Positions 7,653 through 40,806 of a DNA stretch of 43,281 bases are shown one piece after another. How positions within the stretch are numbered: position 1 is the first letter of the stretch; each line of letters starts with the position of its first letter. The DNA comes from a virus (taxonomy: Duplodnaviria > Heunggongvirae > Uroviricota > Caudoviricetes). The stretch is from IMG/VR virus record IMGVR_UViG_2909298281_000002; one strand, given 5' to 3'. The notes below the pieces were generated by a model, which worked only from the letters and a program-made list of their open reading frames with translations, was not told the DNA's origin and ran no database searches. A program made the position numbers and the translations under genes.

Positions 7653-8485
7653 ACAGTTTAACGGCAAATAACCGTTTGTCGCAACAGCTGGTGGTCAGCG
7701 TCGCTGAACACCTGTTGTTACGGCATGAATGCAGATTACCAAATCACCTGGCTGTAAGTAACCACAGAGAACTTTACCTGACTGTGGGGGGCGAGTTGTG
7801 CAGGAACTTAACCGCTGGTTTAGTGACGGAAGAGGACTTTATGTTCATGTTATTCGTTGGGAGCCAGAAACACAGCGCGTTATCTATCTTCGCAAAGACT
7901 ACCCGCATGAGTGCTTTAGTCCTTTGTGGAAATTCAGGCGTGATTTTATTGAGTGTGAAGGACCACCAGCACATTGATTCTGCCATTCCGGGACGTTACA
8001 CTGTTCAGGCACCTTATAAAGCGGGTGCCGGGATTGGCGTCCTGGAATTGATCAAGGCGATATATGACGCGCCAGCGTCTTTTTTATCGTCCGCATTTGC
8101 TCACATCAAAGTTATGGTGGGCTGGGCGGGGGCATCGAAAGATGCGCCGGTTTCCTTGATCACCGGTTACGCCAACCCCGTTCAGTTCACCACCAGCGAA
8201 ATTGGCGTTTCCGGTGGTGGAAGTATTTCACCGATCAAGGAGGCTGCCATCATGGCTACTGTCCCAGCCCTCACTCGTCTGAATGATGAAGACTTACATA
8301 AACTCAGTTATGTAACAACAGCACTACGTGCTCTGCGCAAGGTAACTCTTTCAGATCCGCAGGCGCATCAACTTCTGGTAGAAACCCTTCTTAACTTGCA
8401 GGCTGAACGTATTCGTTTGGCGGATAAGGCTAATCTTCATATTCACCGTCTCCTGAATATCAGCGGAGGGCATCGTCATGCTTAA
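7649..8485 (+). CDS. hypothetical replication-region protein
   Basis: 278-aa ORF; ATG overlaps the upstream stop (ATGA), indicating translational coupling; no motif recognised. Confidence 0.65.
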   Translation: MNSLTANNRLSQQLVVSVAEHLLLRHECRLPNHLAVSNHRELYLTVGGELCRNLTAGLVTEEDFMFMLFVGSQKHSALSIFAKTTRMSALVLCGNSGVILLSVKDHQHIDSAIPGRYTVQAPYKAGAGIGVLELIKAIYDAPASFLSSAFAHIKVMVGWAGASKDAPVSLITGYANPVQFTTSEIGVSGGGSISPIKEAAIMATVPALTRLNDEDLHKLSYVTTALRALRKVTLSDPQAHQLLVETLLNLQAERIRLADKANLHIHRLLNISGGHRHA

Positions 8486-11556: not shown

Positions 11557-12546
11557 GTGAGAGCACTACTGACCCCTGAAATTGCCCCGCGTATGGGGAT
11601 CGTATTGTTCAGACCAGGTTCAGAGCTGATGCCCCTATTTATGCAGGGGCGTGTCCTGCTGGAGCCTGAGCCGGAACGTTATTCATCTTTCGCCAGTGGT
11701 GCCGTTCCGGCGGCATCACAACCGCTGGCGGATGATCCTGCCGTTCGGGCCGTGTTCCGCAATGAGGCAGTGATCCGTCGTGCTGGTGGCGTGGAATGTC
11801 TTGAAAGCTGGTTACTTCGTGAAAAAGGCTGTCAGTGGCCTCATTCCGACTGGCACAGCGAGAACATGACCACAATGCGACATGCTCCGGGCGCAATCCG
11901 TCTGTGCTGGCACTGCGATAACCAGCTGCGCGATCAATTCACGGAACGGCTGGAATCAATGGCAACGGATAACTGTGCCCGCTGGGTGTTGTCTGTCGTG
12001 CGTCGGGATCTCGGTTTTGATGATAGTCACGTTGTGACAATGCCGGAACTGTGCTGGTGGCTGATTCGTAATGACCTGGCGGATGCCTTACCGGAAAGTG
12101 CAGCCCGTAAGGCACTTAGATTACCGAAGCCTGTTGTGCCGTCTGCTACCCGGGAAAGTGACCTTGTGCCTTCGGTTCCTGCCACCAGCATCATCCAGGA
12201 TAAAGCGAAAAAGGTGCTGGCGCTGAAAGTGGATCCTGAGTCGCCGGAGTCTTTTATGTTACGCCCAAAACGTCGCCGCTGGGTTAATGAAAAGTACACG
12301 CGCTGGGTTAAGACACAGCCGTGTGCATGTTGTGGAAAGCCCGCTGATGATCCCCACCACCTGATAGGTCACGGTCAGGGTGGAATGGGTACAAAAGCGC
12401 ATGATCTCTTTGTGTTGCCTTTGTGCAGAAAGCATCACGACGAGCTGCATGCGGATACCGTGGCATTTGAAGAGAAGTATGGCTCCCAGCTGGAGCTGAT
12501 ATTTCGTTTTATCGATCGTGCGCTGGCAATTGGCGTGCTGGCCTGA
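11557..12546 (+). CDS. DUF968-domain protein (YdfU-like, Cys/His-rich C-terminus)
   Basis: C-terminal CACCGK...HHLIGHGQGG...CRKHHDELH motif typical of DUF968 proteins. Start uncertain: GTG at 11557 has GAGG 6 nt upstream; the track uses GTG at 11551. Confidence 0.75.
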   Translation: MRALLTPEIAPRMGIVLFRPGSELMPLFMQGRVLLEPEPERYSSFASGAVPAASQPLADDPAVRAVFRNEAVIRRAGGVECLESWLLREKGCQWPHSDWHSENMTTMRHAPGAIRLCWHCDNQLRDQFTERLESMATDNCARWVLSVVRRDLGFDDSHVVTMPELCWWLIRNDLADALPESAARKALRLPKPVVPSATRESDLVPSVPATSIIQDKAKKVLALKVDPESPESFMLRPKRRRWVNEKYTRWVKTQPCACCGKPADDPHHLIGHGQGGMGTKAHDLFVLPLCRKHHDELHADTVAFEEKYGSQLELIFRFIDRALAIGVLA

Positions 12547-12575
12547 TTTTGTGGAGAATTTTGTGGAGAAGGTTG

Positions 12576-12926
12576 ATGCGTGATATGTATGAAGTATTGG
12601 ACCTCTGGGGAGCATGGGCTGCAGCAGATAACAGTGGTGTGGACTGGCAGCCTGTTGCTGCAGGGTTTAAAGGTTTACTACCTCATGGAAAGAAAACACG
12701 CCAACAATGCGATGATGATGAAGGAATCATGATTGACAGCTGTGTTGCGCGATTGCGGAAATATAAGCCAGAAGAATATGAACTGATCATTGCTCACTTT
12801 GTTATCGGTATTTCACTCCGTTCAATAGCAAAGAAACGGAAATGCTCTGACGGGTCAATCAGAAAACAACTTCAAGCAGCAATAGGAGTGATTGAAGGTA
12901 TTTTGTTGATTATTAAGCCCCTGTAG
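12576..12926 (+). CDS. late-gene antiterminator Q (QuuD-like)
   Basis: 116 aa from the ATG at 12576 (GGAGAAGG Shine-Dalgarno); LDLWGAWAAADNSGVDWQPVAAGFKGL...CDDDEG pattern matches the DLP12 QuuD-type family as recalled. Confidence 0.85.
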   Translation: MRDMYEVLDLWGAWAAADNSGVDWQPVAAGFKGLLPHGKKTRQQCDDDEGIMIDSCVARLRKYKPEEYELIIAHFVIGISLRSIAKKRKCSDGSIRKQLQAAIGVIEGILLIIKPL

Positions 12927-12934
12927 GGCTTAAT
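12912..12934. terminator. convergent-gene hairpin ATTAAGCCC-ctgta-GGGCTTAAT spanning the stops of Q and the cassette membrane gene
   Basis: Perfect 9-bp inverted repeat seen directly; no U-run on either side, so terminator function is uncertain. Confidence 0.35.
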
Positions 12935-13514
12935 AATTCATATGAATTCTGTTTCCGAGATAATATAATCCAAAGAAAGTTGATACTAAGAGTTGCCAAA
13001 CGAGGAAAGTAAATACAACAGTATAAACCATTAAAACAATACTGTTTTGATAGACATTGATTAATGGTGAAAATATAGCATTAAGTATTATTATAACAAT
13101 GCTTAATGCTGTTAAAAAAGAGAATAGCATGCAAAGAAATAAGCGTCTGGTCAGAACCTCCTCTGAATTTACTACTTTTCCATTTTCTTTTGTTACTTTT
13201 ATTTCAATAGAGGCATTTCTTTCATTGCTAATCAATGGTAAATCAATCTCAGCTCTATTGAAAGTTGCTATGGCGGCCAGAGCGGCAATATAAAACCCTG
13301 GTAGGTTAGAGATAAATGAAACGATTGATTTAATGAAACCATTGTCATCAAATAAATCTTTGACAGGGATTTTTAATAGAATGAAAAGTACTGCTGTGAT
13401 AGAAGTAAGTAGAATTGGTGCTACCCAATCATATGCAGCTTTGCCGCTAATACCTTTAATAAAAAGATATCCAAACGGCTTGCCTAGATGAGAGAAAACT
13501 GAAAGTATTGGCAT
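12930..13514 (-). CDS. predicted four-helix integral membrane protein (second gene of the accessory cassette)
   Basis: 194 aa; ATG with GAGG 8 nt upstream, 7 nt after the upstream stop; four hydrophobic segments (about residues 25–47, 60–85, 125–150, 155–185); about 30% GC against about 50% for the flanking phage DNA. Confidence 0.8.
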   Translation of the reverse strand: MPILSVFSHLGKPFGYLFIKGISGKAAYDWVAPILLTSITAVLFILLKIPVKDLFDDNGFIKSIVSFISNLPGFYIAALAAIATFNRAEIDLPLISNERNASIEIKVTKENGKVVNSEEVLTRRLFLCMLFSFLTALSIVIIILNAIFSPLINVYQNSIVLMVYTVVFTFLVWQLLVSTFFGLYYLGNRIHMNY

Positions 13515-13521
13515 AATAACC

Positions 13522-14544
13522 TCACATCAAATCTATCATTTTCACAACAAACTCTAGTTCAATTTTAACATATGAATCCTTCAGGCGCGAATTAAAGTTA
13601 TCGATAATGCTTTTCTTAATAAATGTTTTTTCTAAATTATTAAGATTGATGTTTGAGGTTTTGAAATCAACCTGCCTTGGTTTATTTGTTTCAGGATCTT
13701 GGAATTTAACCTTTAATTTATCATAACCACCATTCATTTTTTTATTGAAATGAGATGCTACATTTTTAATCCATCCAATAACATTGTCACCATGATTTGG
13801 AAGTAATTTTAATGTACTTTCAGTCGGAATGTAAGGTGAATTAACATCAGGAGCATTAATTGTTCCGAATTGATCCTTGACTAATATGACATCTGATAAT
13901 CCTTTTTGGCTTATTTTATTAAAAAGCTCCTTGTCTAACATTCCTGTAAATTCAAATATTGGTTTGTATCGTATTTTTACTTCTTTTTTTGATGTTGTAG
14001 AAATAACGTTAGTTGGATGTTTTGCGGTAAATAAGTCTTCATTGTCTTTCGCTACTTCAAAGAGAATTTTGTCTAAAAAACTATTTAACCGGGCCGTAGA
14101 TACACCTGGGGTAGATGTACAAATCATATCATAGGTTCTTTTATTTCCATTTAATGATATGACAACATAGGTAGAAACTTCATAGCCTTCACCTTGTTCA
14201 TATTTTGGTTGGATTTCAACGCGTTCATTAGTATTTGTATTTTTTACAACGGTAGTACTTCCATTTTTATCAACACTATTAATAAGAAGGACAATATGCG
14301 TGGGTGAGTTATCTGGAAGTAAAGGATAAAGTTGTACATCTTGGAGAGTAACTACAATATTCCCAGAATCATATGAATGAACGAGTCCCTTTTGTTTAAC
14401 AATCAATGGGGCAAGCATGTACATTTCCGGAACAGGACATATACACTGGGCTTTTACCTCTTGTGTTGCCTTGGTTCTAAACTTTGTGTCAATGGTCAGA
14501 CTATGATGAGTAACGAGTCTTTCGCTAGCATTTAATTTTGCCAT
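13522..14544 (-). CDS. hypothetical soluble protein (first gene of the accessory cassette), no recognisable domain
   Basis: 340-aa ORF, ATG at 14544; no Walker, HxD or nuclease motif seen; Lys/Asn-rich and AT-rich codon usage; tightly coupled to the downstream membrane gene. Confidence 0.8.
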   Translation of the reverse strand: MAKLNASERLVTHHSLTIDTKFRTKATQEVKAQCICPVPEMYMLAPLIVKQKGLVHSYDSGNIVVTLQDVQLYPLLPDNSPTHIVLLINSVDKNGSTTVVKNTNTNERVEIQPKYEQGEGYEVSTYVVISLNGNKRTYDMICTSTPGVSTARLNSFLDKILFEVAKDNEDLFTAKHPTNVISTTSKKEVKIRYKPIFEFTGMLDKELFNKISQKGLSDVILVKDQFGTINAPDVNSPYIPTESTLKLLPNHGDNVIGWIKNVASHFNKKMNGGYDKLKVKFQDPETNKPRQVDFKTSNINLNNLEKTFIKKSIIDNFNSRLKDSYVKIELEFVVKMIDLM

Positions 14545-14581
14545 GAAATCATCCGATTATGATTTTTCGATTTATTTGTTA

Positions 14582-14610
14582 ATCTTACAAAAACGCTAAC
14601 GCGTACGCAA
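14582..14610 (-). promoter_or_regulatory. candidate sigma70 promoter for the accessory cassette
   Basis: Minus strand TTGCGT (plus 14605–14610), 17-nt spacer, TAAGAT (plus 14582–14587), about 35 nt upstream of the 340-aa gene start. Confidence 0.35.
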
Positions 14611-14655
14611 AAATTATTGTATCGTGTTAAGAGTGGTTACTTCGCCACACAGCTT

Positions 14656-14685
14656 AAACCCGCCGTCGAGCGGGTTTTGTCGTTT
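14656..14685 (+). terminator. tR'-like intrinsic terminator in the late leader (PR'/qut expected just upstream)
   Basis: AAACCCGC-cgtcga-GCGGGTTT hairpin followed by TGTCGTTTCT, about 145 nt upstream of the holin; analogous to the lambda 6S terminator that Q overrides. No PR' hexamers could be pinned. Confidence 0.5.
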
Positions 14686-14829
14686 CTGGGGCTGGGGATT
14701 CGTTGGTCCTGGTCTATTCCGCAGTTATCCATTGGTTCGGCTTCTTTGACGTTTCCGCTTCTAATTTGCTGTACATGATGTTCCCTCAATTTGCACCTGC
14801 TGTATCAGCGAGGTGAGAGATAACTACAA

Positions 14830-15156
14830 ATGCCTCATAACCCAAATACCTGGCTGGAGTTGTTCCAGAGCTGGTGGTGTGGAGACACACCGCTGGGCGC
14901 AGTGATTATGTCGATCGTTATGGCTGGCTTGCGCATTGCCTATTTTGGCGGTGGTGGTGGCTGGAAACGAAAAACGCTCGAGATTTTGCTCTGTGGTGCT
15001 CTGACGCTGACTTTTGCATCCGCTCTTGAGTATGTCGGATGGCCTAAATCTCTTTCTGTTGCCATTGGTGGCGGCGTTGGGCTGATCGGGGTCGATGCTA
15101 TTCGTGGGGCTGCAATGAGAGTAATCGGTAATAAGTTTGGTGGCTCTAAGGAGTAA
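14830..15156 (+). CDS. holin (lambda S family)
   Basis: 108 aa with three hydrophobic segments and a charged C-terminus; first gene of the lysis cassette, directly upstream of the endolysin. Confidence 0.85.
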   Translation: MPHNPNTWLELFQSWWCGDTPLGAVIMSIVMAGLRIAYFGGGGGWKRKTLEILLCGALTLTFASALEYVGWPKSLSVAIGGGVGLIGVDAIRGAAMRVIGNKFGGSKE

Positions 15157-15159
15157 TTT

Positions 15160-15636
15160 ATGCAGGTACTAAATTCCCAGCGTAAAGCTTTCCTGGATAT
15201 GGTGGCATGGTCAGAGGGAACGGATAACGGGCGACAACCGACACGTAACCACGGTTATGACGTTATTGTCGGTGGAGAACTCTTCACTGATTACTCCGAT
15301 CACCCTCGCAAGCTTGTCACGCTAAACCCGAAACTCAAATCAACAGCTGCAGGCCGTTATCAACTTCTTTCGCGCTGGTGGGATGCTTACCGCAAGCAGT
15401 TAGGGCTGACAGACTTCTCTCCTAAAAGCCAGGATGCTGTTGCATTACAGCAGATTAAAGAGCGTGGCGCTTTACCGATGATTGATCGCGGCGATATTCG
15501 TCAGGCTATCGATCGTTGCAGCAATATCTGGGCGTCGTTACCTGGTGCAGGTTACGGTCAGTATGAACATAAAATCGGTGACCTGATTTCCCGGTTTAAA
15601 GAGGCTGGTGGGGTGGTAAATGAAGTTGAGCTATAA
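15160..15636 (+). CDS. R: endolysin (lambda R-type lytic transglycosylase)
   Basis: 158 aa, near-identical to lambda R as recalled (QRKAFLDM.AWSEGTDNGRQ.TRNHGYDVIVGGELFTDYSDHPRKLVTLNPKLKST); AAGGAG Shine-Dalgarno. Confidence 0.95.
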   Translation: MQVLNSQRKAFLDMVAWSEGTDNGRQPTRNHGYDVIVGGELFTDYSDHPRKLVTLNPKLKSTAAGRYQLLSRWWDAYRKQLGLTDFSPKSQDAVALQQIKERGALPMIDRGDIRQAIDRCSNIWASLPGAGYGQYEHKIGDLISRFKEAGGVVNEVEL

Positions 15637-16012
15637 GCTGGTTATCGCTGCATTCTTCTTTACTGTCATCGGTTCTTTCATCTGGTCTGCCAACCACTAC
15701 TACAGCAAATATCAGCACGAAAAGAAACATGCTGATGAGGCTGTACAAAATGCTGAATCTGCAACAGCCATTACCCGTAACGTCCTGCAATCACTGCAAA
15801 TCGTCAATACAGTTATAGAGGTTAACCAGCATGCAAAACAGCAGATCGCACTGGAGTCACAGAGAACCCAGAAAGATATCAAAGTGGCTGTTGCGGATGA
15901 TGATTGTGCTGCACGCCTTGTGCCTGCTGCCGCTGCTGAGCGGTTGCGGAAGTACGCGGACAGTTTACGTACAAGTTCCGGCAGTACCACTCCCGACGAA
16001 TCTGATCGCTGA
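15620..16012 (+). CDS. i-spanin (Rz-like)
   Basis: 130 aa with an N-terminal transmembrane helix and a charged periplasmic domain; overlaps the endolysin end and contains the Rz1 start in another frame. Confidence 0.8.
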   Translation: MKLSYKLVIAAFFFTVIGSFIWSANHYYSKYQHEKKHADEAVQNAESATAITRNVLQSLQIVNTVIEVNQHAKQQIALESQRTQKDIKVAVADDDCAARLVPAAAAERLRKYADSLRTSSGSTTPDESDR

Positions 16013-16154
16013 AACCTCGCAACCAGTTATTCCTGAGCCGCTGACTTTTGAGGGCAGCCTAGATTTGAACGTTAGTCTGTTATCGGCGTTGGGTCAATGT
16101 AACCTTGACAAGGCTAGCATCAGACGGATTGAACAATCACGATTCTCACAATAG
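15897..16154 (+). CDS. o-spanin lipoprotein (Rz1-like)
   Basis: Starts inside Rz in another frame; signal peptide with lipobox (MMIVLHALCLLPLLSGC) and a proline-rich mature region. The track ATG at 15831 would add a hydrophilic extension atypical of a signal peptide. Confidence 0.7.
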   Translation: MMIVLHALCLLPLLSGCGSTRTVYVQVPAVPLPTNLIAETSQPVIPEPLTFEGSLDLNVSLLSALGQCNLDKASIRRIEQSRFSQ

Positions 16155-16330
16155 CGAGTTTTTATCATAAGAAAGGTGCTTTTCACTAAATCCCTGCATT
16201 TGAAGCTGAAGATGGAAAGAAACGCTACTGGGTATACTACTACTGGTCGCTTATTCTGAATCAGAAGAGAACGGCGTCCTTCAGCTCGAAGAGTCGGCTA
16301 TAAACAGGCACTTTGGGTGCCTGTTAATGA

Positions 16331-16726
16331 TTAGTCCTGCATGAATCTCTCTCTTTCTATTTCATAACCGTCGCTTTCTTCTCGGCAGTTTTGACATAAG
16401 AGATCTCCATAGTAACCTTGTAAGTTATAAGCTTCTTCTAGCTCATAGCCAGAGATAACCTTAGAGCAACCGTTATGGTGCCCGCCTGGATTTCTAACAC
16501 CACCACATGGGTGAGAAAGGAAAGGTTGCAATACCCTCTTTTGCGGTGCAGAAAGACTATCAAATCCTTTGGTTACAGCTAACTTAGCGATTCCACTAAC
16601 TTTGCCATCTTCATGATAAAATGCGTCACAATTAAGCATTGTATTGAGTAATGATTCTACTTCGTCAGACACTGGAAATACCTCTCTATAAACAAAAGTA
16701 ATAGCTATCACACAAAGTTTAAGCAC
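16331..16726 (-). CDS. hypothetical Cys/His-rich protein (YbcV-like by position)
   Basis: ORF in an AT-rich island after the lysis genes; C-terminal C-x8-HH-x2-C ... C-x2-C cluster. Start uncertain: GTG at 16726 (131 aa) or ATG at 16639 (102 aa), neither with a clear Shine-Dalgarno. Confidence 0.55.
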   Translation of the reverse strand: MLKLCVIAITFVYREVFPVSDEVESLLNTMLNCDAFYHEDGKVSGIAKLAVTKGFDSLSAPQKRVLQPFLSHPCGGVRNPGGHHNGCSKVISGYELEEAYNLQGYYGDLLCQNCREESDGYEIERERFMQD

Positions 16727-16844
16727 ATAAACTAAAATAAATCAAAATGTTAATGATAATCGTATAGTAAAAAGAAAAGGCTGAAGTAGCCGAGAGGTAG
16801 CAATAGCAGGTTAAGGCAGGCACTTAGTAAGTGCCTGCCACTGG

Positions 16845-17054
16845 TTAGTAACAAGATGGTGTATTGTTGAATCTGTAAGAGAGGCGAACTATTTCAGAAA
16901 CCCCTTTTCGGTTTAACAATCGCCTTATATTCTCTGGATTTTTGTAAATAAAAGGATTCCTTAGATCCTCGAACACTCCTCCTGCAATGCAAATCAAATA
17001 TTCCAGATCTTCTTGTGTTGGTAAGGTTGAAAGTTTGTTATTTGCATTATTCAT
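16845..17054 (-). CDS. hypothetical small protein (YbcW-like)
   Basis: 69 aa from the ATG at 17054 with AGGAG 9 nt upstream (MNNANNKLSTLPTQEDLEYLICIAGGVFEDLRNPF...); resembles DLP12 YbcW as recalled. Confidence 0.6.
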   Translation of the reverse strand: MNNANNKLSTLPTQEDLEYLICIAGGVFEDLRNPFIYKNPENIRRLLNRKGVSEIVRLSYRFNNTPSCY

Positions 17055-17175
17055 TTTACAGCTCCTAATTATTGCCGTTATTGGCGTGGTGCATGATAGG
17101 AAGTTTGTGATTTTTAACGGTAGCTGGGGCAAGCTTTTTGTGAATCCTATGCACATCATCAAATCGAGTTTTTTA

Positions 17176-17451
17176 ATGCCACAACGAACCCCAAAAGCCT
17201 GCCGTGTTCGCGGCTGCCGCCATACCACTACTGACCCGTCAGGCTACTGCGAAAGCCACAAAAGCGAAGGCTGGAAGCAATACAAGCCAGGCCAGTCCCG
17301 ACACCAGCGCGGTTATGGTTCGCGGGGTTGTCCCTCATGCTCGCCAGTCCTGTGCGGGGGTGGAAGAAACAGGACACTCACACAGATTCTTGTAGGTCGA
17401 TGCTATTCCTTTCTGGATTATCCCGATGCCATTCATGCAAGGGCTGTATAA
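17176..17451 (+). CDS. Cys-rich ORF resembling the N-terminal zinc-binding part of cos-phage HNH endonucleases; no H-N-H motif
   Basis: MPQRTPKACRVRGCRHTTTDPSGYCESHKSEGWKQ...HQRGYGS resembles the start of HK97 gp74-type HNH proteins as recalled, but no HNH catalytic motif follows in any frame. No Shine-Dalgarno. May be a remnant. Confidence 0.3.
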   Translation: MPQRTPKACRVRGCRHTTTDPSGYCESHKSEGWKQYKPGQSRHQRGYGSRGCPSCSPVLCGGGRNRTLTQILVGRCYSFLDYPDAIHARAV

Positions 17452-17499
17452 GACGTTCGTCATGGCTGTCAGGCTGACGGGTCCTCCCGGTGGGGTGGC

Positions 17500-17690
17500 C
17501 TGCCACGGGGCGGGAGCGTCGCGGAAAAAGGCTAGTTTTTGAAATTTCATTCGTCATCACCACTACTTTAATATATTGATATTACAGTGGTTTTATTTTT
17601 ATGGTGTCGATTTTGATTGTTTTTTGTTCATCACTAACACCGTTTGCCTAAAGTTGTTCGCAAGATGCATGTTTAAAACATTCTGGAGCG
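17500..17690. promoter_or_regulatory. cos region (cosN-like nicking site and terminase-binding region)
   Basis: ACGGGGCGGGAGCGTCGCGG at 17505–17524 resembles lambda cosN ACGGGGCGGCGACCTCGCGGG as recalled; an AT-rich stretch with a shared TTCGTCAT motif follows, directly upstream of the Nu1-type small terminase. Confidence 0.55.
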
Positions 17691-17693
17691 GGT

Positions 17694-18188
17694 ATGGATC
17701 GAGAGTTGAAAAATCTGACGCTGAATATCAGTCAACTGGCGGCACTGTCAGGTGTACATCGCCAGACTGCTGCGGCAAGGCTGCAAAATCTACCCGTTGC
17801 AGGGGGGCATGAAAGCAACCTCAAGCTTTATCGGGTGGTTGATATTGTGTCGGCATTTCTGGCATTACCACCGCCGGTTGCAGAAGGCGAAATGGACGCG
17901 CATGAGCGCAAAGCCTGGTATCAGTCTGAACGTGAGCGTCTTAAGTTCGAACAGGAAACGGCGCAACTCATTCCGGCCAGTGATGTCAGACGGGAGTTTG
18001 CCATCTGGGCAAAAGCGGTCGTGCAGGTGCTGGAGACATTACCGGATATTCTGGAACGTGACTGCGGTCTGCAGCCTGCCGCTGTGAGCCGTGTTCAGTC
18101 CATTATTGATGATCTGCGCGATCAGATAGCCCTGCGGGTGACCGAAGCAGGTGCGGATGATGAGGAGGAATTACAGCAGGAGGAGTAA
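17694..18188 (+). CDS. terminase small subunit (lambda Nu1-like)
   Basis: 164 aa with N-terminal HTH (LNISQLAALSGVHRQTAAARL); overlaps the large-subunit start (TAATG). Confidence 0.85.
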   Translation: MDRELKNLTLNISQLAALSGVHRQTAAARLQNLPVAGGHESNLKLYRVVDIVSAFLALPPPVAEGEMDAHERKAWYQSERERLKFEQETAQLIPASDVRREFAIWAKAVVQVLETLPDILERDCGLQPAAVSRVQSIIDDLRDQIALRVTEAGADDEEELQQEE

Positions 18189-20290
18189 TGCTGAATCAGG
18201 AAACCGCAAAGGCAGCACGAACCGATTCAGGTTATATCCTTCGCGCACCGAGACGAATGCAGGTTGCTGATGCCGTTGCTCAATATATGCGGGTGCCCAT
18301 GGGGGCCGGGAACTCAGTCCCGTGGGATCCGCTGGTGGCACCGTATGTTATTGAGCCGATGAACTGCCTGGCCTCGCGTGAATACGACGCAGTGATATTT
18401 GTTGGCCCGGCACGAACCGGCAAGACTATCGGCCTGATTGACGGCTGGGTGATTTACAACGTGATTTGCGATCCTGCGGATATGCTGATCATTCAGATGA
18501 CGGAGGAAAAAGCCCGCGAACACTCCAAAAAACGACTTGCCAGAACGTTTCGCGTCAGCCCGGAAGTGGTCAGTCGCCTGAGTCCGAACAAAAATGACAA
18601 CAACGTTTATGACAGAACATTCCTTGCTGGTAACTACCTGAAAATCGGCTGGCCGTCAGTCAATATCATGTCCTCATCAGATTATAAATGCGTCGCGCTG
18701 ACGGATTATGACCGTTTTCCGGAAGATATTGATGGCGAGGGGGATGCTTTCTCTCTTGCCTCAAAACGTACCACAACATTTATGTCCAGTGGTATGACGC
18801 TGGTGGAGAGTTCCCCCGGCAGGGATGTGAAGGATGTGAAATGGCGACGGACTTCACCGCATGAGGCTCCACCAACCACGGGGATACTGTCGCTCTATAA
18901 CCGTGGCGATCGCCGTCGCTGGTACTGGCCCTGTCCACACTGTGGTGAGTATTTTCAGCCCTGCGGCGATGTGGTTGCTGGTTTCCGTGATATTGCCGAT
19001 CCCGTGCTGGCAAGTGAGGCGGCTTATATTCAGTGTCCTTCCTGTTCAGGACGGATTATGCCTGAACAAAAACGTGAGCTGAACGGACGTGGGGTCTGGT
19101 TGCGGGATGGTGAATCCATCAATGCGGATGGCAGTCGTTATGGTGATCCCCGACGCTCACGTATTGCGTCATTCTGGATGGAGGGTCCGGCAGCTGCTTA
19201 CCAGACACTCTCGCAACTCGTTTACAAACTGCTTACTGCAGAACAGGAATACGAGACAACCGGAAGTGAAGAAACACTCAAGACGGTTATCAATACCGAC
19301 TGGGGATTACCTTATCTTCCCCGCGCCAGCATGGAGCAACGAAAAAGTGAACTGCTTGAGCAGCGGGCAGAGCCAGTTCCTTCCCGCAGTGTGCCGGATG
19401 GCGTTAATTTCCTTGTGGCGACAGTGGATGTGCAGGCGGGACGTCATCGCCGTTTTGTGGTTCAGGTAACGGGCTATGGCAGCCGTGGCGAACGCTGGAT
19501 TATTGATCGTTACAACATCACGCAGTCATTGCGCGGTGACAGCGACGGGGAGAGCCAGCGAATTGATCCGGCCAGCTATCCGGAAGACTGGGATGTCCTG
19601 CTGACGGATGTTTTTCATAAAAGCTGGCCGCTGGCCTCCGATCCTTCTCAACAAATGCGACTGATGGCAATGGCGGTGGACTCCGGCGGTGAAGACGGGG
19701 TCACTGATAATGCCTATAAATTCTGGCGTCGTTGCCGTCGTGATGGCCTTGGTAAACGTATTTACCTGTTTAAGGGTGACAGCATCCGGCGCGCAAAACT
19801 GATCAGCCGTACATTCCCTGATAACACCGGACGAACGGGCCGCCGGGCGCAGGCCGCAGGTGATGTGCCGCTCTGGCTTCTTCAGACGGATGCCCTGAAA
19901 GACCGGGTGAATAACGCGTTATGGCGTGACTCGCCAGGTCCAGGCTATGTGCATTTCCCTGACTGGCTGGGGAGCTGGTTTTACGACGAACTGACGTATG
20001 AAGAGCGGAGCAGTGACGGGAAATGGAGTAAGCCGGGTCGCGGTGCCAACGAAGCTTTTGACCTGATGGTGTATGCCGAGGCTCTGGTCATTCTGCATGG
20101 ATACGAAAAGATCCGCTGGCCGGATGCACCGGAGTGGGCGAGCCGGGAAACCTGGCTGGAGTGTGTCCCGGACAGTACCGAACCGTCACCCACACCGGAA
20201 CCGGTATCCACGCCTGTTAAAAAACAAAAACGGAAGAAAACAGTAACTGACGATGTTAACCCCTGGCTGACTTCCGGAGGATGGTTATGA
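18188..20290 (+). CDS. terminase large subunit (lambda gpA family)
   Basis: 700-aa ORF with GpA-family organisation, including a Walker-A-like segment (VGPARTGKT) and Cys clusters; follows Nu1 and precedes the portal. Confidence 0.9.
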   Translation: MLNQETAKAARTDSGYILRAPRRMQVADAVAQYMRVPMGAGNSVPWDPLVAPYVIEPMNCLASREYDAVIFVGPARTGKTIGLIDGWVIYNVICDPADMLIIQMTEEKAREHSKKRLARTFRVSPEVVSRLSPNKNDNNVYDRTFLAGNYLKIGWPSVNIMSSSDYKCVALTDYDRFPEDIDGEGDAFSLASKRTTTFMSSGMTLVESSPGRDVKDVKWRRTSPHEAPPTTGILSLYNRGDRRRWYWPCPHCGEYFQPCGDVVAGFRDIADPVLASEAAYIQCPSCSGRIMPEQKRELNGRGVWLRDGESINADGSRYGDPRRSRIASFWMEGPAAAYQTLSQLVYKLLTAEQEYETTGSEETLKTVINTDWGLPYLPRASMEQRKSELLEQRAEPVPSRSVPDGVNFLVATVDVQAGRHRRFVVQVTGYGSRGERWIIDRYNITQSLRGDSDGESQRIDPASYPEDWDVLLTDVFHKSWPLASDPSQQMRLMAMAVDSGGEDGVTDNAYKFWRRCRRDGLGKRIYLFKGDSIRRAKLISRTFPDNTGRTGRRAQAAGDVPLWLLQTDALKDRVNNALWRDSPGPGYVHFPDWLGSWFYDELTYEERSSDGKWSKPGRGANEAFDLMVYAEALVILHGYEKIRWPDAPEWASRETWLECVPDSTEPSPTPEPVSTPVKKQKRKKTVTDDVNPWLTSGGWL

Positions 20291-20499
20291 ACCAGAATGA
20301 TATCGAAGCCATGATTCAGCGTTATACGGAAGCTGAAATGGCGGTGCTGGACGGAAAATCCGTCACCTTTAATGGTCAGCAGATGACCATGGAAAACTTA
20401 TCTGAGATCCGGCAGGGACGGCAGGAGTGGGAGCGCCGCCTTGCGGCTCTGATTACACGACGACGGGGGCATCCCGGGTACCGGCTGGCGAGGTTCTGA
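20287..20499 (+). CDS. head-tail joining protein (gpW-like)
   Basis: 70 aa ending ...RRRGHPGYRLARF, like the lambda W C-terminus; GGAGG 6 nt upstream of the ATG at 20287 (alternative ATG at 20281). Confidence 0.7.
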   Translation: MNQNDIEAMIQRYTEAEMAVLDGKSVTFNGQQMTMENLSEIRQGRQEWERRLAALITRRRGHPGYRLARF

Positions 20500-22007
20500 T
20501 GGCAATTCTTGATGATGTGATTGGCGTTTTTTCACCAGGATGGAAAGCGGCAAGGCTGCGTTCCCGTGCGGTGATCCAGGCTTATGAGGCCGTAAAAACG
20601 ACGCGGACACACAAAGCCCGGCGGGAAAACCGAACTGCCGACCAGTTAAGCCAGTACGGGGCCGTGTCGTTACGTGAGCAGGCCCGTTACCTTGATAACA
20701 ACCACGATCTGGTTATTGGTGTATTTGACAAGCTGGAAGAACGGGTGGTGGGGAAAAACGGAATTATTGTCGAGCCACATCCGGTATTACGCAATGGAGC
20801 CATTGCCCGTGACCTGGCTGCGGAGATTCGCACCCGATGGAGTGAATGGTCTGTCAGCCCGGAAGTCACCGGGCAGTTTACCCGTCCGATGCTGGAACGT
20901 CTGATGCTGCGTACCTGGCTGCGCGATGGTGAGGTGTTTGCCCAGATGGTTTCCGGGCGCATAAACAGCCTGACGCCTTCTGCCGGTGTTCATTTCTGGC
21001 TGGAGGCGCTCGAGCCGGACTTTATTCCCATGACCAGTGATGAGAGCAACAGGCTGAATCAGGGCGTGTTTGTTGATGACTGGGGGCGTCCCGAAAAATA
21101 TCTGGTGTATAAAAGCCGTCCCGTATCCGGACGGCAGATGGAAACCAAAGAAGTGGATGCAGAGCGAATGCTGCATCTTAAATTTGTTCGCCGTCTGCAC
21201 CAGATGCGCGGGACGTCTTTGTTGTCCGGTGTGTTGATCCGCCTCAGTGCCCTGAAAGAGTATGAAGATTCTGAGCTGACTGCAGCAAGGATCGCCGCTG
21301 CTCTGGGGATGTACATCCGCAAAGGCGACGGACAGAGCTATGAACCGGATGGTAATGGCAGCAAGGATAAGGAACGCGAGCTTACCATTCAGCCAGGCAT
21401 TATTTACGACGATCTGAAACCCGGCGAAGAAATCGGAATGGTGAAGTCGGATCGCCCCAATCCTAATCTTGAAACTTTTCGTAATGGTCAGTTGCGTGCA
21501 GTGGCGGCTGGCAGTCGTCTGAGTTTTTCCAGTACTGCGCGCAACTATAACGGCACTTACAGCGCCCAGCGTCAGGAGCTGGTTGAATCCACTGATGGCT
21601 ACCTGATCCTGCAGGACTGGTTTATTGGTGCCGTCACCCGCCCGATGTACCGTGCCTGGCTGAAACAGGCTGTGGCATCCGGTGTTATCAGGCTACCCCG
21701 CGATCTTGACCGTTCTTCACTGTATACCGCGGTGTATTCCGGACCGGTGATGCCGTGGATTGACCCTGTTAAGGAGGCTGAGGCCTGGAAAATCCAGATT
21801 CGTGGTGGAGCGGCGACAGAATCAGACTGGGTACGTGCTGGTGGTCGTAATCCGGATGATGTCAAACGTCGGCGCAAGGCCGAAATTGATGAAAACCGCA
21901 AGCTGGATCTGGTATTTGATACCGATCCGGCCAGTGATAAAGGAGGTAGCAGTGCCGCAACGAAACGACAGGAGCCGCAGCACACCAACAACCAGTCCGA
22001 AGAATAA
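20499..22007 (+). CDS. portal protein (lambda gpB family)
   Basis: 502 aa from the ATG at 20499 (overlaps the W stop, TGATG); follows the terminase. The track ORF has a 24-codon 5' extension. Confidence 0.85.
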   Translation: MAILDDVIGVFSPGWKAARLRSRAVIQAYEAVKTTRTHKARRENRTADQLSQYGAVSLREQARYLDNNHDLVIGVFDKLEERVVGKNGIIVEPHPVLRNGAIARDLAAEIRTRWSEWSVSPEVTGQFTRPMLERLMLRTWLRDGEVFAQMVSGRINSLTPSAGVHFWLEALEPDFIPMTSDESNRLNQGVFVDDWGRPEKYLVYKSRPVSGRQMETKEVDAERMLHLKFVRRLHQMRGTSLLSGVLIRLSALKEYEDSELTAARIAAALGMYIRKGDGQSYEPDGNGSKDKERELTIQPGIIYDDLKPGEEIGMVKSDRPNPNLETFRNGQLRAVAAGSRLSFSSTARNYNGTYSAQRQELVESTDGYLILQDWFIGAVTRPMYRAWLKQAVASGVIRLPRDLDRSSLYTAVYSGPVMPWIDPVKEAEAWKIQIRGGAATESDWVRAGGRNPDDVKRRRKAEIDENRKLDLVFDTDPASDKGGSSAATKRQEPQHTNNQSEE

Positions 22008-36816: not shown

Positions 36817-36826
36817 TGGGGTGAAT

Positions 36827-39800
36827 ATGGCAGTAAAGATTTCAGGTGTACTGAAAGACGGCACAGGAAAACCGGTACAGAACTGCACAATCCAGCTGAA
36901 AGCAAAACGTAACAGCACCACGGTGGTGGTGAACACGCTGGCCTCAGAAAATCCGGATGAAGCCGGGCGTTACAGCATGGACGTTGAGTACGGGCAGTAC
37001 AGCGTTATTCTGTTGGTGGAGGGATTCCCGCCGTCACATGCCGGGACCATCACCGTGTATGAAGATTCCCGACCCGGTACGCTGAATGATTTTCTCGGTG
37101 CCATGACGGAGGATGATGCCCGTCCTGAGGCACTGCGCCGTTTTGAACTGATGGTGGAAGAGGTGGCGCGTAACGCGTCCGCGGTGGCACAGAACACGGC
37201 AGCCGCGAAGAAGTCAGCCAGCGATGCCGGCACATCAGCACGTGAGGCGGCAACCCATGCGACTGATGCTGCAGGCTCAGCACGCGCAGCCAGCACGTCA
37301 GCCGGACAGGCCGCGTCGTCGGCTCAGTCAGCATCTTCCAGCGCAGGAACGGCATCAACAAAGGCCAGTGAAGCATCGAAAAGTGCTGCTGCTGCAGAGT
37401 CCTCAAAAAGCGCGGCAGCTACCAGTGCCGCTGCGGCGAAAACGTCAGAAACGAATGCGGCAGCGTCACAACAATCAGCAGCCACTTCTGCATCCGCCGC
37501 GACCACGAAGGCGTCAGAAGCAGCCACCTCAGCACGGGATGCGGCGGCCTCAAAAGAGGCAGCGAAATCATCAGAAACGAACGCATCATCAAGCGCCAGT
37601 AGTGCCGCTTCCTCGGCAACGGCGGCAGGCAATTCCGCGAAGGCGGCAAAGACGTCTGAGACAAACGCCAGGTCTTCTGAAACGGCAGCGGGACAGAGCG
37701 CCTCGGCTGCGGCAGGCTCAAAAACAGCGGCTGCGTCGTCTGCCAGTGCCGCGTCAACAAGTGCCGGGCAGGCCTCAGCCAGTGCCACCGCCGCCGGAAA
37801 ATCGGCAGAAAGTGCCGCATCGTCTGCTTCAACAGCCACAACGAAGGCTGGCGAAGCCACTGAACAGGCCAGCGCAGCAGCGAGGTCTGCTTCCGCAGCG
37901 AAGACATCCGAGACGAACGCGAAAGCGTCGGAAACCAGCGCAGAATCCTCAAAAACGGCTGCCGCATCGTCCGCCAGTTCGGCGGCGTCATCGGCATCAT
38001 CGGCGTCTGCTTCAAAAGATGAGGCGACCAGACAAGCGTCCGCAGCGAAGGTCAGCGCCACGACAGCATCCACGAAGGCGACAGAGGCAGCTGGCAGTGC
38101 GACGGCGGCAGCACAGAGCAAAAGTACGGCGGAATCCGCGGCAACGCGCGCCGAGACAGCGGCAAAACGGGCAGAGGATATTGCATCCGCCGTGGCGCTT
38201 GAGGATGCAAGTACGACGAAAAAGGGGATAGTACAGCTCAGCAGTGCGACCAACAGTACGTCTGAAACGCTGGCGGCAACGCCAAAGGCAGTAAAATCAG
38301 CCTATGACAATGCAGAGAAACGTCTGCAGAAAGACCAGAACGGCGCTGATATACCCGATAAGGGACGCTTCCTGAACAACATTAACGCGGTCAGTAAAAC
38401 AGACTTTGCTGATAAGCGTGGTATGCGTTATGTGCGGGTTAACGCTCCTGCAGGTGCAACATCTGGAAAATATTACCCTGTTGTTGTTATGCGTTCTGCT
38501 GGCTCAGTAAGCGAACTGGCATCAAGGGTCATTATCACCACGGCAACGCGAACCGCAGGCGATCCGATGAATAACTGCGAGTTTAACGGATTTGTTATGC
38601 CTGGTGGCTGGACTGACAGGGGGCGTTATGCTTATGGAATGTTCTGGCAATATCAAAACAATGAACGAGCCATCCACTCAATAATGATGAGTAATAAGGG
38701 CGATGATTTGCGCTCTGTGTTCTATGTTGATGGCGCTGCTTTCCCTGTTTTTGCGTTTATCGAAGATGGCCTGTCAATATCCGCACCTGGTGCTGATCTC
38801 GTTGTTAATGATACGACCTATAAGTTTGGGGCAACAAATCCAGCGACTGAATGTATCGCGGCGGACGTTATCCTTGATTTTAAGAGTGGGCGTGGTTTTT
38901 ATGAGTCTCATTCGTTAATCGTTAACGATAACTTGTCGTGCAAAAAACTTTTTGCCACAGACGAAATTGTAGCGCGTGGTGGTAATCAGATTCGAATGAT
39001 AGGTGGGGAGTATGGGGCATTATGGCGTAATGATGGCGCTAAAACTTACCTGCTGCTTACCAATCAAGGTGATGTTTATGGTGGATGGAATACATTAAGA
39101 CCGTTTGCTATTGATAACGCAACCGGCGAACTGGTTATTGGAACCAAGCTGTCTGCAAGTCTGAACGGTAACGCATTGACAGCAACAAAGCTGCAAACGC
39201 CAAGACTGGTTTCTGGGGTTGAGTTTGATGGTTCAAAATATATTACTTTAACCGCCGCGCATGTGGCTGCTTTTGCCAGAAGGGCAACGGATACATATGC
39301 CGATGCGGATGGTGGCGTTCCCTGGAATGCCGAATCAGGCGCTTACAATGTCACCCGCTCTGGCGACAGCTATATTCTGGTTAACTTCTATACCGGAGTC
39401 GGAAGTTGCCGGACCCTGCAGATGAAGGCGCATTACAGAAATGGTGGTCTGTTCTACCGTTCTTCAAGAGACGGTTATGGTTTTGAGGAAGACTGGGCAG
39501 AAGTTTATACCTCGAAAAATCTTCCACCAGAAAGCTACCCAGTCGGCGCACCAATCCCGTGGCCATCAGATACCGTTCCGTCTGGTTATGCCCTGATGCA
39601 GGGGCAGACTTTTGACAAATCTGCTTACCCGAAACTTGCAGCCGCTTATCCGTCAGGCGTGATCCCTGATATGCGTGGCTGGACGATTAAGGGCAAGCCC
39701 GCCAGTGGTCGTGCCGTATTGTCTCAGGAACAGGACGGCATTAAATCGCACACCCACAGCGCCAGCGTATCCAGTACGGATTTGGGTACGAAAACCACAT

Positions 39801-40225
39801 CATCGTTTGATTACGGCACTAAATCCACGAATAACACTGGTGCGCATACTCATAGTTTAAGTGGCAGCACGAATGCAGCTGGTAATCACAGCCATAGAGA
39901 TGGCCGTCGATTTAACCCCAGTGTTTTTAAAGATACTTATCAATATGGTTATACAAGCTCAGGTCAAAATACCTGGGGTGTACAAGGCTCAGTAGGTATG
40001 TCTACGGGGTGGTTAGCTAATACCAGTACAGATGGTAATCATAGCCACTCACTGTCCGGCACAGCAGCATCTGCAGGTGCACACGCGCATACTGTCGGTA
40101 TTGGTGCTCATACGCACTCCGTTGCGATTGGTTCACATGGACACACCATCACCGTTAACGCTGCTGGTAATGCGGAAAACACCGTCAAAAACATCGCATT
40201 TAACTATATTGTGAGGCTTGCATAA
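36827..40225 (+). CDS. stf: side tail fibre protein Stf
   Basis: 1132 aa from the ATG at 36827; N-terminus matches lambda Stf ([37 protein letters not shown]); long Ala/Ser-rich repetitive shaft; C-terminus with repeated His-x-His boxes (GAHTHS, GNHSHS, GAHAHT, GSHGHT) ending ...[11 protein letters not shown]. Confidence 0.9.
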
Positions 40226-40806
40226 TGGCATTCAGAATGAGTGAACAACCACGGACCATAAAAATTTATAATCTGCTGGTCGGGACTAATGAATTTATTG
40301 GTGAAGGTGACGCATATATTCCGCCTCATACAGGTCTGCCAGCAAACAGTACCGATATTGCACCGCCAGATATTCCGGCAGGCTTCGTGGCTGTTTTCAA
40401 CAGTGATGAGGCATCGTGGCATCTCGTTGAAGATCATCGGGGTAAAACGGTTTATGACGTGGCTTCCGGCGACGCGTTATTTATTTCTGAACTCGGTCCG
40501 TTACCGGAAAATGTTACCTGGTTATCGCCGGGAGGGGAATATCAGAAGTGGAACGGCACAGCCTGGGTGAAGGATACGGAAGCAGAAAAACTGTTCCGGA
40601 TCCGGGAGGCGGAAGAAACAAAAAACAGCCTGATGCAGGCAGCGAATGAGCATATTGCGCCACTTCAGGATGCTGTAGATCTGGAAATCGCAACGGAGGA
40701 AGAAATCTCGTTGCTGGAAGCATGGAAAAAGTATCGGGTATTGCTGAACCGTGTTAATACAACAACTGCACCGGATATTGAATGGCCAGTAGCACCTATA
40801 GGGTAA
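40225..40806 (+). CDS. tfa: tail fibre assembly protein Tfa
   Basis: 193 aa, near-identical to lambda Tfa ([77 protein letters not shown]); ATG overlaps the stf stop. Confidence 0.95.

Follow-up and report, generated by a model that had tools for sequence, protein, structure and literature searches.

A Cys-rich reading frame upstream of a lambda-type cos site in an Escherichia coli prophage: a probable chimera between the remnant of an HNH endonuclease gene and non-coding DNA

What is the short Cys-rich open reading frame (ORF) that precedes the cos site and terminase genes of a lambdoid prophage recorded in IMG/VR as IMGVR_UViG_2909298281_000002? The stretch of DNA analysed here, referred to as the window, is that record at its full length of 43,281 nucleotides (nt). 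On its plus strand, a 91-codon ORF extends from an ATG at 17176 to a TAA at 17449-17451 and specifies 91 amino acids (aa); an in-frame ATG further upstream, at 16987, yields a longer ORF in the mechanical sense only. The packaging genes here border on an arm for late regulation and lysis, and the order after the ORF is small terminase subunit (TerS), large terminase subunit (TerL), head-tail adaptor and portal. The original prediction, made from the letters of the sequence, saw in the ORF either a decayed HNH endonuclease gene, the loss of which would matter for DNA packaging, or a distinct small zinc-ribbon protein. Our analysis indicates, with a probability of about 0.88, that the 91-aa ORF is no gene but a chimeric frame read across a mosaic junction between phages.

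The predicted resemblance of residues 1-50 to the zinc-ribbon N-termini of HNH endonucleases was confirmed by tblastn, phmmer, the PHROG family phrog_144 and a Cys/His motif, all of which agree. Codons 1-49 of the ORF (147 nt) showed 100% DNA identity to the intact gene for WP_024184542 in E. coli S19-651. In a tblastn search of phage records, the HNH protein of SfI matched aa 1-50 with 96% aa identity (E 2e-25), and the N-termini of the 116-aa HNH endonucleases of SfI, SfV, SfIV, SfII and ST64B are 88-96% identical to these residues. The phrog_144 profile ('HNH endonuclease') spans aa 1-49 (E 9e-11), and phmmer with the ORF protein returned 108 matches. The ORF contains four putative zinc ligands in the motif C9-x4-C14 ... 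C25-x2-H28, which are almost invariant across 43 aligned sequences. This motif fits the [CxxxxC]/[CxxH] class of N-terminal zinc ribbons ('Group 1') described for phage HNH enzymes (Xu and Gupta, 2013; PMC3592412), and it is from this motif that zinc binding by the ORF N-terminus may be proposed; the crystal structure of the GVE2 enzyme (PMC5304195) has the corresponding N-terminal segment disordered. The likeness had been drawn more broadly to the HNH proteins of HK97-type cos phages. It holds for the zinc-ribbon HNH (ZR-HNH) proteins of phages with P27/HK97-type terminases, but not for HK97 gp74, which itself has no N-terminal zinc ribbon (PMC3592412).

The homology ends within the ORF. None of the 205 phage-record matches continued past ORF residue 50 in that frame and, although the N-terminal zinc-ribbon homology is present, the beta-beta-alpha-Me HNH domain (His-Asn-His with [CxxC]2) is missing. 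In the intact homologue, Pfam places the HNH domain at aa 66-112, and the protein matches the GVE2 HNH endonuclease (HNHE; PDB 5H0M) along its full length. When this 116-aa homologue was used as a tblastn query against all six frames of the 43-kb window, only its aa 1-50 were recovered (E 1.7e-31), with everything else at E > 0.8; the original prediction that no H-N-H motif follows in any frame was therefore correct. The 91-aa ORF itself matched no family in Pfam or NCBIfam scans. In a search of 5.8 billion proteins, intact relatives were 116 aa long with PF01844/PF14279, and a handful of E. coli proteins, named 'endonuclease' or hypothetical, had the aberrant tail of the ORF. AlphaFold2 modelling with 42 homologues gave predicted local distance difference test (pLDDT) values of 80-86 for aa 1-30 and below 50 for aa 48-91. 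Homology to YlcI (DUF3950), named beforehand as an outcome that would speak against an HNH origin, was not found: BLASTP against K-12 YlcI gave E 0.64, and Pfam gave no match. The ylcI gene of DLP12 and of lambda is set in unrelated DNA and runs on the opposite strand.

Comparison with the S19-651 prophage located the break precisely. Window positions 12008-17322 are colinear with this prophage at 99.45% identity, with two mismatches in 16020-17322 and none in 17176-17322. Identity then stops abruptly at 17323, from where the two sequences are unrelated. Beyond this point, S19-651 continues with the rest of its intact 116-aa HNH gene, followed by genes for a P27-family TerS, an HK97-type TerL, YmfR and the portal. 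The order in S19-651 and ARS-C101 is Q, two minus-strand genes, holin, lysozyme, LysC, moron, HNH (351 nt), P27-family TerS, TerL, YmfR and portal, and this parental arrangement with a P27-family TerS was found only in these two. Among 5426 complete E. coli genomes, window positions 16020-17180 occurred in five, each with an annotated full-length HNH endonuclease gene after them. On the other side, the window from 17308 matches the extreme right ends of the lambdoid phages mEp460 (95%), 569R4 (96%) and PhiR47_1 (87%), those of Tritos and the Stx/VT1-Sakai phages more distantly, and thousands of E. coli prophage copies. All of these named phages carry other DNA upstream of the point equivalent to 17308. 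The possibility that the mEp460-type upstream DNA is a diverged HNH remnant was rejected, as its local alignment was no better than that of shuffled sequences (763 of 1000 equalled or exceeded its score).

The stretch common to both homologies is CGCG[G/T]TTATGGTTCG (17308-17322), the last 10 nt of which are exact. No exact match between the HNH gene and the 460 nt of non-coding DNA that precede cosQ in 569R4 is longer than TTATGGTTCG; among 300 shuffles, one attained a 14/15 match and 32 an exact 10-mer. The junction falls inside HNH codons 45-49 (RGYGS), and TTATGGTTCG, which encodes GYGS, is kept among HNH alleles. The join looks like the product of microhomology-guided illegitimate recombination. 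The 147 nt are 100% identical to an intact gene, and the DNA 3' of 17322 is unrelated and non-coding. The HNH gene was most probably lost by a recombination cut at codon 49/50 and not by gradual decay; the original idea of a decayed gene is thus right in that the HNH gene is dead, but not in the manner of its death. An assembly chimera can be ruled out as the source of the junction, since the junction recurs in 37 of the 5426 complete genomes and in 14 of 108 IMG/VR loci.

The remainder of the ORF shows none of the constancy of a coding sequence. The tail DNA carries 1-bp indels among close relatives, and a length-polymorphic G-run at 17356-17360 places the tail in all three frames in related copies (GGGRNRT..., GGGKKQD... 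and GGGEETG...), while gene callers' products from remnant plus tail are 91, 121, 133 and 155 aa long. Judged by these frames, the tail is non-coding DNA that is read through by accident to a chance stop. Inspection of aligned mEp460-, Tritos- and VT1-type loci for a conserved small ORF across the junction block, on either strand, showed that they share starts, but not frames or stops.

We next consider how often the remnant-cos junction arose. The 37 of 5426 complete genomes that carry it were counted at a query coverage of at least 80%; if only the cos-proximal block is asked for, well over two thousand of the 5426 have it. Of the IMG/VR loci, 108 contain the beginning of the block; approximately 94 of these have mEp460-type upstream DNA and 14 the remnant. 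In VT1-Sakai-type prophages the cos block is preceded by mEp460-type upstream DNA, both at approximately 75% identity, and the remnant-free arrangement is therefore the older one. All remnant copies in complete genomes, including those of strains IAI39, MEI008 and RS218, belong to one haplotype, B, whose identity to the window does not exceed 96% and which keeps the native HNH upstream region with GGAG. Haplotype B carries E26K and R42C, and many copies also have C14Y, A8T and H16N; intact homologues have E in 16, R in 19, C in 17 and A in 15 of 19 sequences at these positions. Comparisons of intact with intact HNH genes yielded mostly synonymous changes. The B-lineage changes, among them the loss of a putative zinc ligand, would thus be a signature of relaxed constraint, albeit in small numbers. 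Haplotype A, that of the window, was also found in one IMG/VR locus (L031), 99% identical over 14.8 kb. Its pristine state would be due to a later crossover that brought the arm from an S19-651-like phage with an intact HNH gene; the last A/B difference in the remnant is at 17304.

Haplotypes A and B could instead have been made by two independent illegitimate recombinations at TTATGGTTCG, which would then be a recurrent hot spot and not a single scar. This we regard as unlikely, though it is the most serious of the alternatives. Between the HNH gene and the cos-proximal DNA, no better microhomology is available than the 10-nt identity (14/15), which is maintained by the GYGS codons of the HNH alleles, and a third, unrelated upstream context, of the Tritos/ybcW type, meets the block no more than 5 bp from that point. 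However, a G at 17327, 5 nt past the junction, comes from neither parent type: it is found in all HNH-remnant loci of both haplotypes, and all of the approximately 94 mEp460-type loci have T. Moreover, the window and the B-lineage prophages have near-identical right arms, which agree even in the state of two 1-bp indels; positions 17323-21800 are 99.3% identical to MEI008 without gaps over 4.5 kb. From the shared G and the similarity of the right arms, we infer one original join followed by homologous exchange.

A second alternative, that the 91-aa product or its first ~49 residues form a functional stand-alone zinc-ribbon protein, either a DNA-binding accessory or a decoy against the HNH-terminase interplay of competing HK97-type phages, appears very improbable. 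It can point to an intact frame with C9, C14, C25 and H28 in place, to upstream sequence and signals identical to those of the functional parental gene in S19-651, to the confident pLDDT values over aa 1-30, and to stand-alone zinc-ribbon proteins described beside HNH genes (PMC3592412). Nevertheless, the commonest copies of the junction carry C14Y, all B-lineage copies carry R42C at a position that is invariant in intact genes, and the tail frame is unconserved among copies. The remnant occurs in only 37 of the 5426 genomes, with most copies of the cos module lacking it, and a recent exchange with an intact gene accounts for its pristine state in the window. With decayed copies and an unconserved tail, the distinct small zinc-ribbon protein offered by the original prediction finds no support here.

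Several points nonetheless weigh against the reading of this locus as a scar from a single join. The ORF has an intact frame behind the parental gene's upstream sequence and is likely to be translated when the late genes are transcribed; its first ~30 residues are modelled with confidence (pLDDT 80-86) as a small unit, and the zinc-ribbon fragment may have residual activity. The decay statistics come from a small number of substitutions, with six non-synonymous versus seven synonymous codons. The right arm of the remnant-free 569R4 is also 98.9% identical to that of the window, and a single origin would lean mainly on one linked nucleotide together with overall similarity. Finally, the remnant-cos junction was found in no isolated phage in a collection of 50,697 records, and the viability of remnant-bearing prophages is a deduction from their module.

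The cosN-like sequence that had been noticed beside the ORF is present, as ACGGGGCGGGAGCGTCGCGG at 17505-17524, with an exact lambda cosQ heptamer 19 nt upstream. The ORF had been described as lying immediately upstream of it; cos is indeed downstream of the ORF, but the ORF ends 53 nt short of the quoted cosN string. The 7-bp cosQ is reported to be highly conserved in lambda-like phages (PMC4669245), and the lambda-window alignment around it keeps ACGGGTCCT..CCGGTG as well. Compared across the joined lambda ends, the window reads ...GACGGGTCCTCCCGGTG-N-CCACG/GGGCGGGAGCGT/CGCGG... and lambda ...TACGGGTCCTTTCCGGTG-N-TTACG/GGGCGGCGACCT/CGCGG..., where slashes delimit the cohesive end. Between ACG/GGGCGGGAGCGT/CGCGG and ACG/GGGCGGCGACCT/CGCGG, differences are confined to cohesive-end positions 7, 8, 9 and 11, and the CG dinucleotides beside both predicted nick sites are retained. 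This is the pattern of natural lambda-like phages, in which cosQ and the left half are conserved and bp 7-12 are variable, Gifsy-1 differing at 8, 9 and 11 (Feiss and colleagues, PMC4669245). The gap from cosQ to ACGGGGCGG is 19 nt in the window and 20 nt in lambda. The composite of cosQ and ACGGGGCGGGAGCGTCGCGG occurs once in the window and in none of 100 shuffles, and the deposited linear genome of Tritos ends in ...CCACG, equivalent to window position 17507, and starts with GGGCGGGAGCGTCGCGG / GGGCGGGAGCGTCGCGGAAAAAGG. Together, cosQ, cosN and the ends of the Tritos record support 17479-17519 as a bona fide lambda-type cos with predicted virion ends.

This cos therefore shares with those of lambda, 21, phi80, N15 and Gifsy-1 an exact cosQ and, by prediction, a 12-nt 5' cohesive end with the left half GGGCGG and flanking CG, as well as terminase genes directly downstream with a gpA-type TerL. 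It differs from that of lambda at the four cohesive-end positions, in a cosQ-cosN spacing that is 1 nt shorter, and in a TerS of the DUF1441 family in place of Nu1. Between cosN and TerS, an imperfect 24-nt direct repeat, TTTTGA..TCATCAC (17537-17560 and 17611-17634, 71% identity), is the sole candidate found for the TerS-binding R repeats of a cosB, in AT-rich DNA. Tritos shares sequence through GGCTAGTTTTTG and then diverges, with another TerS. With the cosQ and cosN coordinates, it should be possible to predict where the virion genomes of this prophage group end.

The downstream genes had been called Nu1/A terminase genes. The large subunit is of gpA type, as stated, but the small subunit belongs to DUF1441/phrog_141, and 'Nu1' is a positional analogy only: no match to the Nu1 family (Phage_Nu1) was obtained, Pfam at E <= 1 giving DUF1441 and weak helix-turn-helix models. 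The window TerL has the length of the annotated TerL of MEI008 and IAI39. An HK97/P27-type terminase is therefore not what stands beside the ORF. The same cos/terminase module is carried without the remnant at the junction by mEp460, 569R4 and PhiR47_1, of which mEp460 and PhiR47_1 are complete records, and none of the three was among the listed matches to ORF aa 1-50 in the phage search. That HNH loss cripples cos cleavage and leaves the prophage packaging-defective, as might be supposed from the promotion of cos cleavage by HK97 gp74 and other HNH proteins of HK97-type systems (PMC9410871, citing Kala et al., 2014) and from a cos-adjacent position typical of HNH helpers (PMC3592412), is hardly credible given a gpA-type terminase with its own nuclease domain in place of an HK97/P27-type enzyme, the lack of an HNH protein in lambda (PMC9410871), the existence of three phages with this module and no remnant at its junction, and TerS, TerL, head-tail adaptor and portal ORFs of full length. 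Contrary to the original suggestion, the remnant would have no bearing on packaging, because the gpA-type terminase has its own nuclease domain; on the evidence of its relatives, it is best seen as a leftover of the left-arm donor's earlier packaging system.

A history consistent with these data would run as follows. The HNH gene of a P27/HK97-type phage, situated between the lysis genes and cos, would have been broken after codon 49, the break inside TTATGGTTCG joining it to the non-coding right end of a lambda/Gifsy-like module (block, cosQ, cosN, cosB, DUF1441 TerS and gpA TerL). The catalytic domain would thereby have been lost, and the frame would run 42 codons into non-coding DNA to a chance stop. 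This junction would have arisen once, by microhomology-guided illegitimate recombination, and its old copies would be decaying. A homologous crossover inside the remnant (17305-17322) would later have linked a lambda-type right arm that carried the remnant to the arm for late regulation and lysis of an S19-651-like phage; in this right arm the gpA-type terminase would nick cosN with its own nuclease domain.

Each element of this history has known counterparts. In relation to the ZR-HNH endonucleases (SfI gp66, SfV orf53, ST64B sb56 and WP_024184542, with GVE2 HNHE 5H0M as a structural relative), the first 49 codons of the ORF are identical or 88-96% identical, and the ORF has the start codon, the place (after the lysis genes and just before cos) and the CxxxxC...CxxH of the ZR-HNH genes of P27/HK97-type cos phages. 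It differs from them in lacking the whole beta-beta-alpha-Me domain (aa 66-112) and in a partner terminase of the lambda gpA type and not the HK97/P27 type. As in other lambdoid mosaic junctions, where novel joints at short homologies are followed by homologous exchange, the window switches from >99% to 95-99% identity inside a 10-nt shared sequence, and the resulting scar may likewise be reused as homology. In this case, however, the joint lies inside a gene and not at a gene boundary, which would be tolerated because the HNH gene is dispensable with the new packaging module.

The remnant is already known, having been annotated as a truncated HNH pseudogene in public E. coli genomes. The Prokaryotic Genome Annotation Pipeline (PGAP) labels the same 150-bp remnant an 'HNH endonuclease' pseudogene, incomplete and missing its C-terminus, in MEI008, IAI39 (ECIAI39_RS24845), W224N and FDAARGOS_1304. 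The IAI39, MEI008 and W224N copies have the same remnant, junction and downstream DUF1441 and gpA genes as the window. They differ from it in their older haplotype, with 14 nt differences, C14Y, R42C and the native HNH upstream region, whereas the window has intact-gene identity and another upstream moron. In E. coli E10 (L204, NZ_CP104533.1; 1192-1341), PGAP calls the 150-bp remnant a 'DUF8602 domain-containing protein' pseudogene, which suggests that the HNH N-terminal region now has its own domain model, missing from the Pfam copy searched. The ORF is accordingly an ordinary recombination scar, for which pseudogene fragment is the correct label, and neither a small zinc-ribbon protein nor a sign of a packaging defect. 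Beyond correct annotation its importance is small. The locus does, however, represent a clean and datable case of a lambdoid packaging-module swap, because both parental arrangements persist in E. coli at >99% identity, and it illustrates that a change of terminase type makes the HNH helper dispensable at once.

The DNA that the junction adjoins deserves separate description. The first ~70 bp of the cos-proximal block (17313-17385) are the sole part upstream of cosQ common to all classes of loci, and they contain a 7-bp hairpin. At one stem pair, T.A gives way to G.C in Stx-type prophages, with G.T intermediates; this is a single covarying pair, and the G-run in the loop is length-polymorphic. 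RNA folding of 17308-17507 was no more stable than that of shuffles (z = +1.5), with the hairpin absent from the minimum-free-energy structure. Rfam, searched with the whole window and by a sensitive scan of 16700-17800, gave nothing relevant at the locus and no family for the hairpin, a sub-threshold match to a eukaryotic long non-coding RNA model being dismissed as chance. Promoter and terminator scans of 16000-17800 returned sites no more numerous than in shuffles, and the literature consulted on the prophage small RNAs AgvB, AsxR and Pas contains no mention of them near cos or terminase. At the left edge of the block (17308-17313), three unrelated upstream contexts, namely the HNH remnant, mEp460-type and Tritos/ybcW-type DNA, join within 5 bp; a fourth class of loci is similar only from cosQ (17478) onward. 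The one explanation that we can offer for this clustering of joins is selection that keeps the block. L140 and similar IMG/VR loci (sequence s17) have a natural deletion that removes the junction region together with the left arm of the hairpin and that appears to lie between two GTGTGCGGG-like repeats.

Tentatively, and with considerable doubt, the 147-bp HNH remnant might serve as a portable homology patch for repeated swaps of whole arms between HK97/P27-type phages with an intact HNH gene and phages with lambda-type packaging. Linked to this equally doubtful idea, the block 17313-17385 with its hairpin might be an undescribed cis-acting element, the left edge of which would be a preferred recombination boundary because three unrelated contexts join there. 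If the homology-patch proposal were true, the window would be one such arm exchange caught fresh. The coordinates of the features discussed are collected in Table 1.

Table 1. Features at and around the remnant-cos junction, in window coordinates.
Feature	Coordinates	Strand	Basis
5' remnant (codons 1-49) of a 116-aa zinc-ribbon and HNH endonuclease gene; pseudogene fragment	17176..17322	+	DNA identity to S19-651, phrog_144, PGAP
Junction microhomology TTATGGTTCG, shared by HNH gene and mEp460-type cos-proximal DNA; 14/15 matches over 17308-17322	17313..17322	+	Three-way comparison of window, S19-651 and 569R4/mEp460
Chimeric ORF tail, codons 50-91 plus stop; non-coding right-end DNA of lambda-type module	17323..17451	+	95-96% identical to right ends of mEp460 and 569R4
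7-bp hairpin GTCCTGT-N15-ACAGGAC in conserved block 17313-17385	17347..17375	+	mEp460-, Tritos- and Stx/VT1-Sakai-type loci
cosQ GGGTCCT	17479..17485	+	Identical to lambda bp 48473-48479
cosN cohesive end GGGCGGGAGCGT; predicted nicks after 17507 (top) and after 17519 (bottom)	17508..17519	+	Lambda alignment
cosN-terminase segment: I2-like CGCGGAAAAAGGCTAGTTTTTG, then candidate cosB	17520..17693	+	Position relative to cosN and TerS
Small terminase subunit, DUF1441 family, 164 aa	17694..18188	+	PF07278 E 2.7e-41; phrog_141 'terminase small subunit' E 7e-74
Large terminase subunit, lambda gpA type, 700 aa, own endonuclease domain	18188..20290	+	PF05876 GpA_ATPase E 8.6e-72; PF20454 GpA_nuclease E 1.2e-85
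Lysozyme	15160-15636		
Rz	15620-16012		

The window is E. coli DNA; several complete E. coli genomes are 100% identical to it over its first 1450 bases (proA and tRNA-Thr thrW). The lambdoid prophage adjoins proA and the tRNA-Thr(CGU) gene thrW and starts just past the latter, with an integrase-sized ORF at 1459-2622; its attachment site at thrW is, we take it, that of the SfV/SfI/SfII group. The prophage of S19-651, the closest relative of the left arm, is situated at icd with an e14-type integrase, and the late arm must therefore have moved between differing integration modules.

Several further observations were made along the prophage. Between Rz and the HNH remnant, a minus-strand moron (16331-17057) comprises two small ORFs of 131 aa (phrog_12178) and 70 aa (phrog_22590), neither of which gave a Pfam, NCBIfam or PADLOC match; it is present in only five of the 5426 complete E. 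coli genomes, always beside an intact HNH gene. In the interval between the Q antiterminator and holin genes (12930-14544, minus strand), the products of two genes, 194 aa and 340 aa long, match subunit B (E 1.8e-54) and subunit A (E 1.6e-32) of PDC-M53, which PADLOC lists as a candidate defence system, and this pair is also found in the S19-651 and ARS-C101 prophages. Rfam matches in the early region were the Hfq-binding RNA isrK (8009-8085) and the C4 antisense RNA (8110-8197). Finally, a full-length Rfam match to IS009 RNA (214 bits) was found at 40568-40766, within an ORF at 40225-40806 and beside a large ORF at 36821-40225, the neighbourhood of which is presumably the tail-fibre region.

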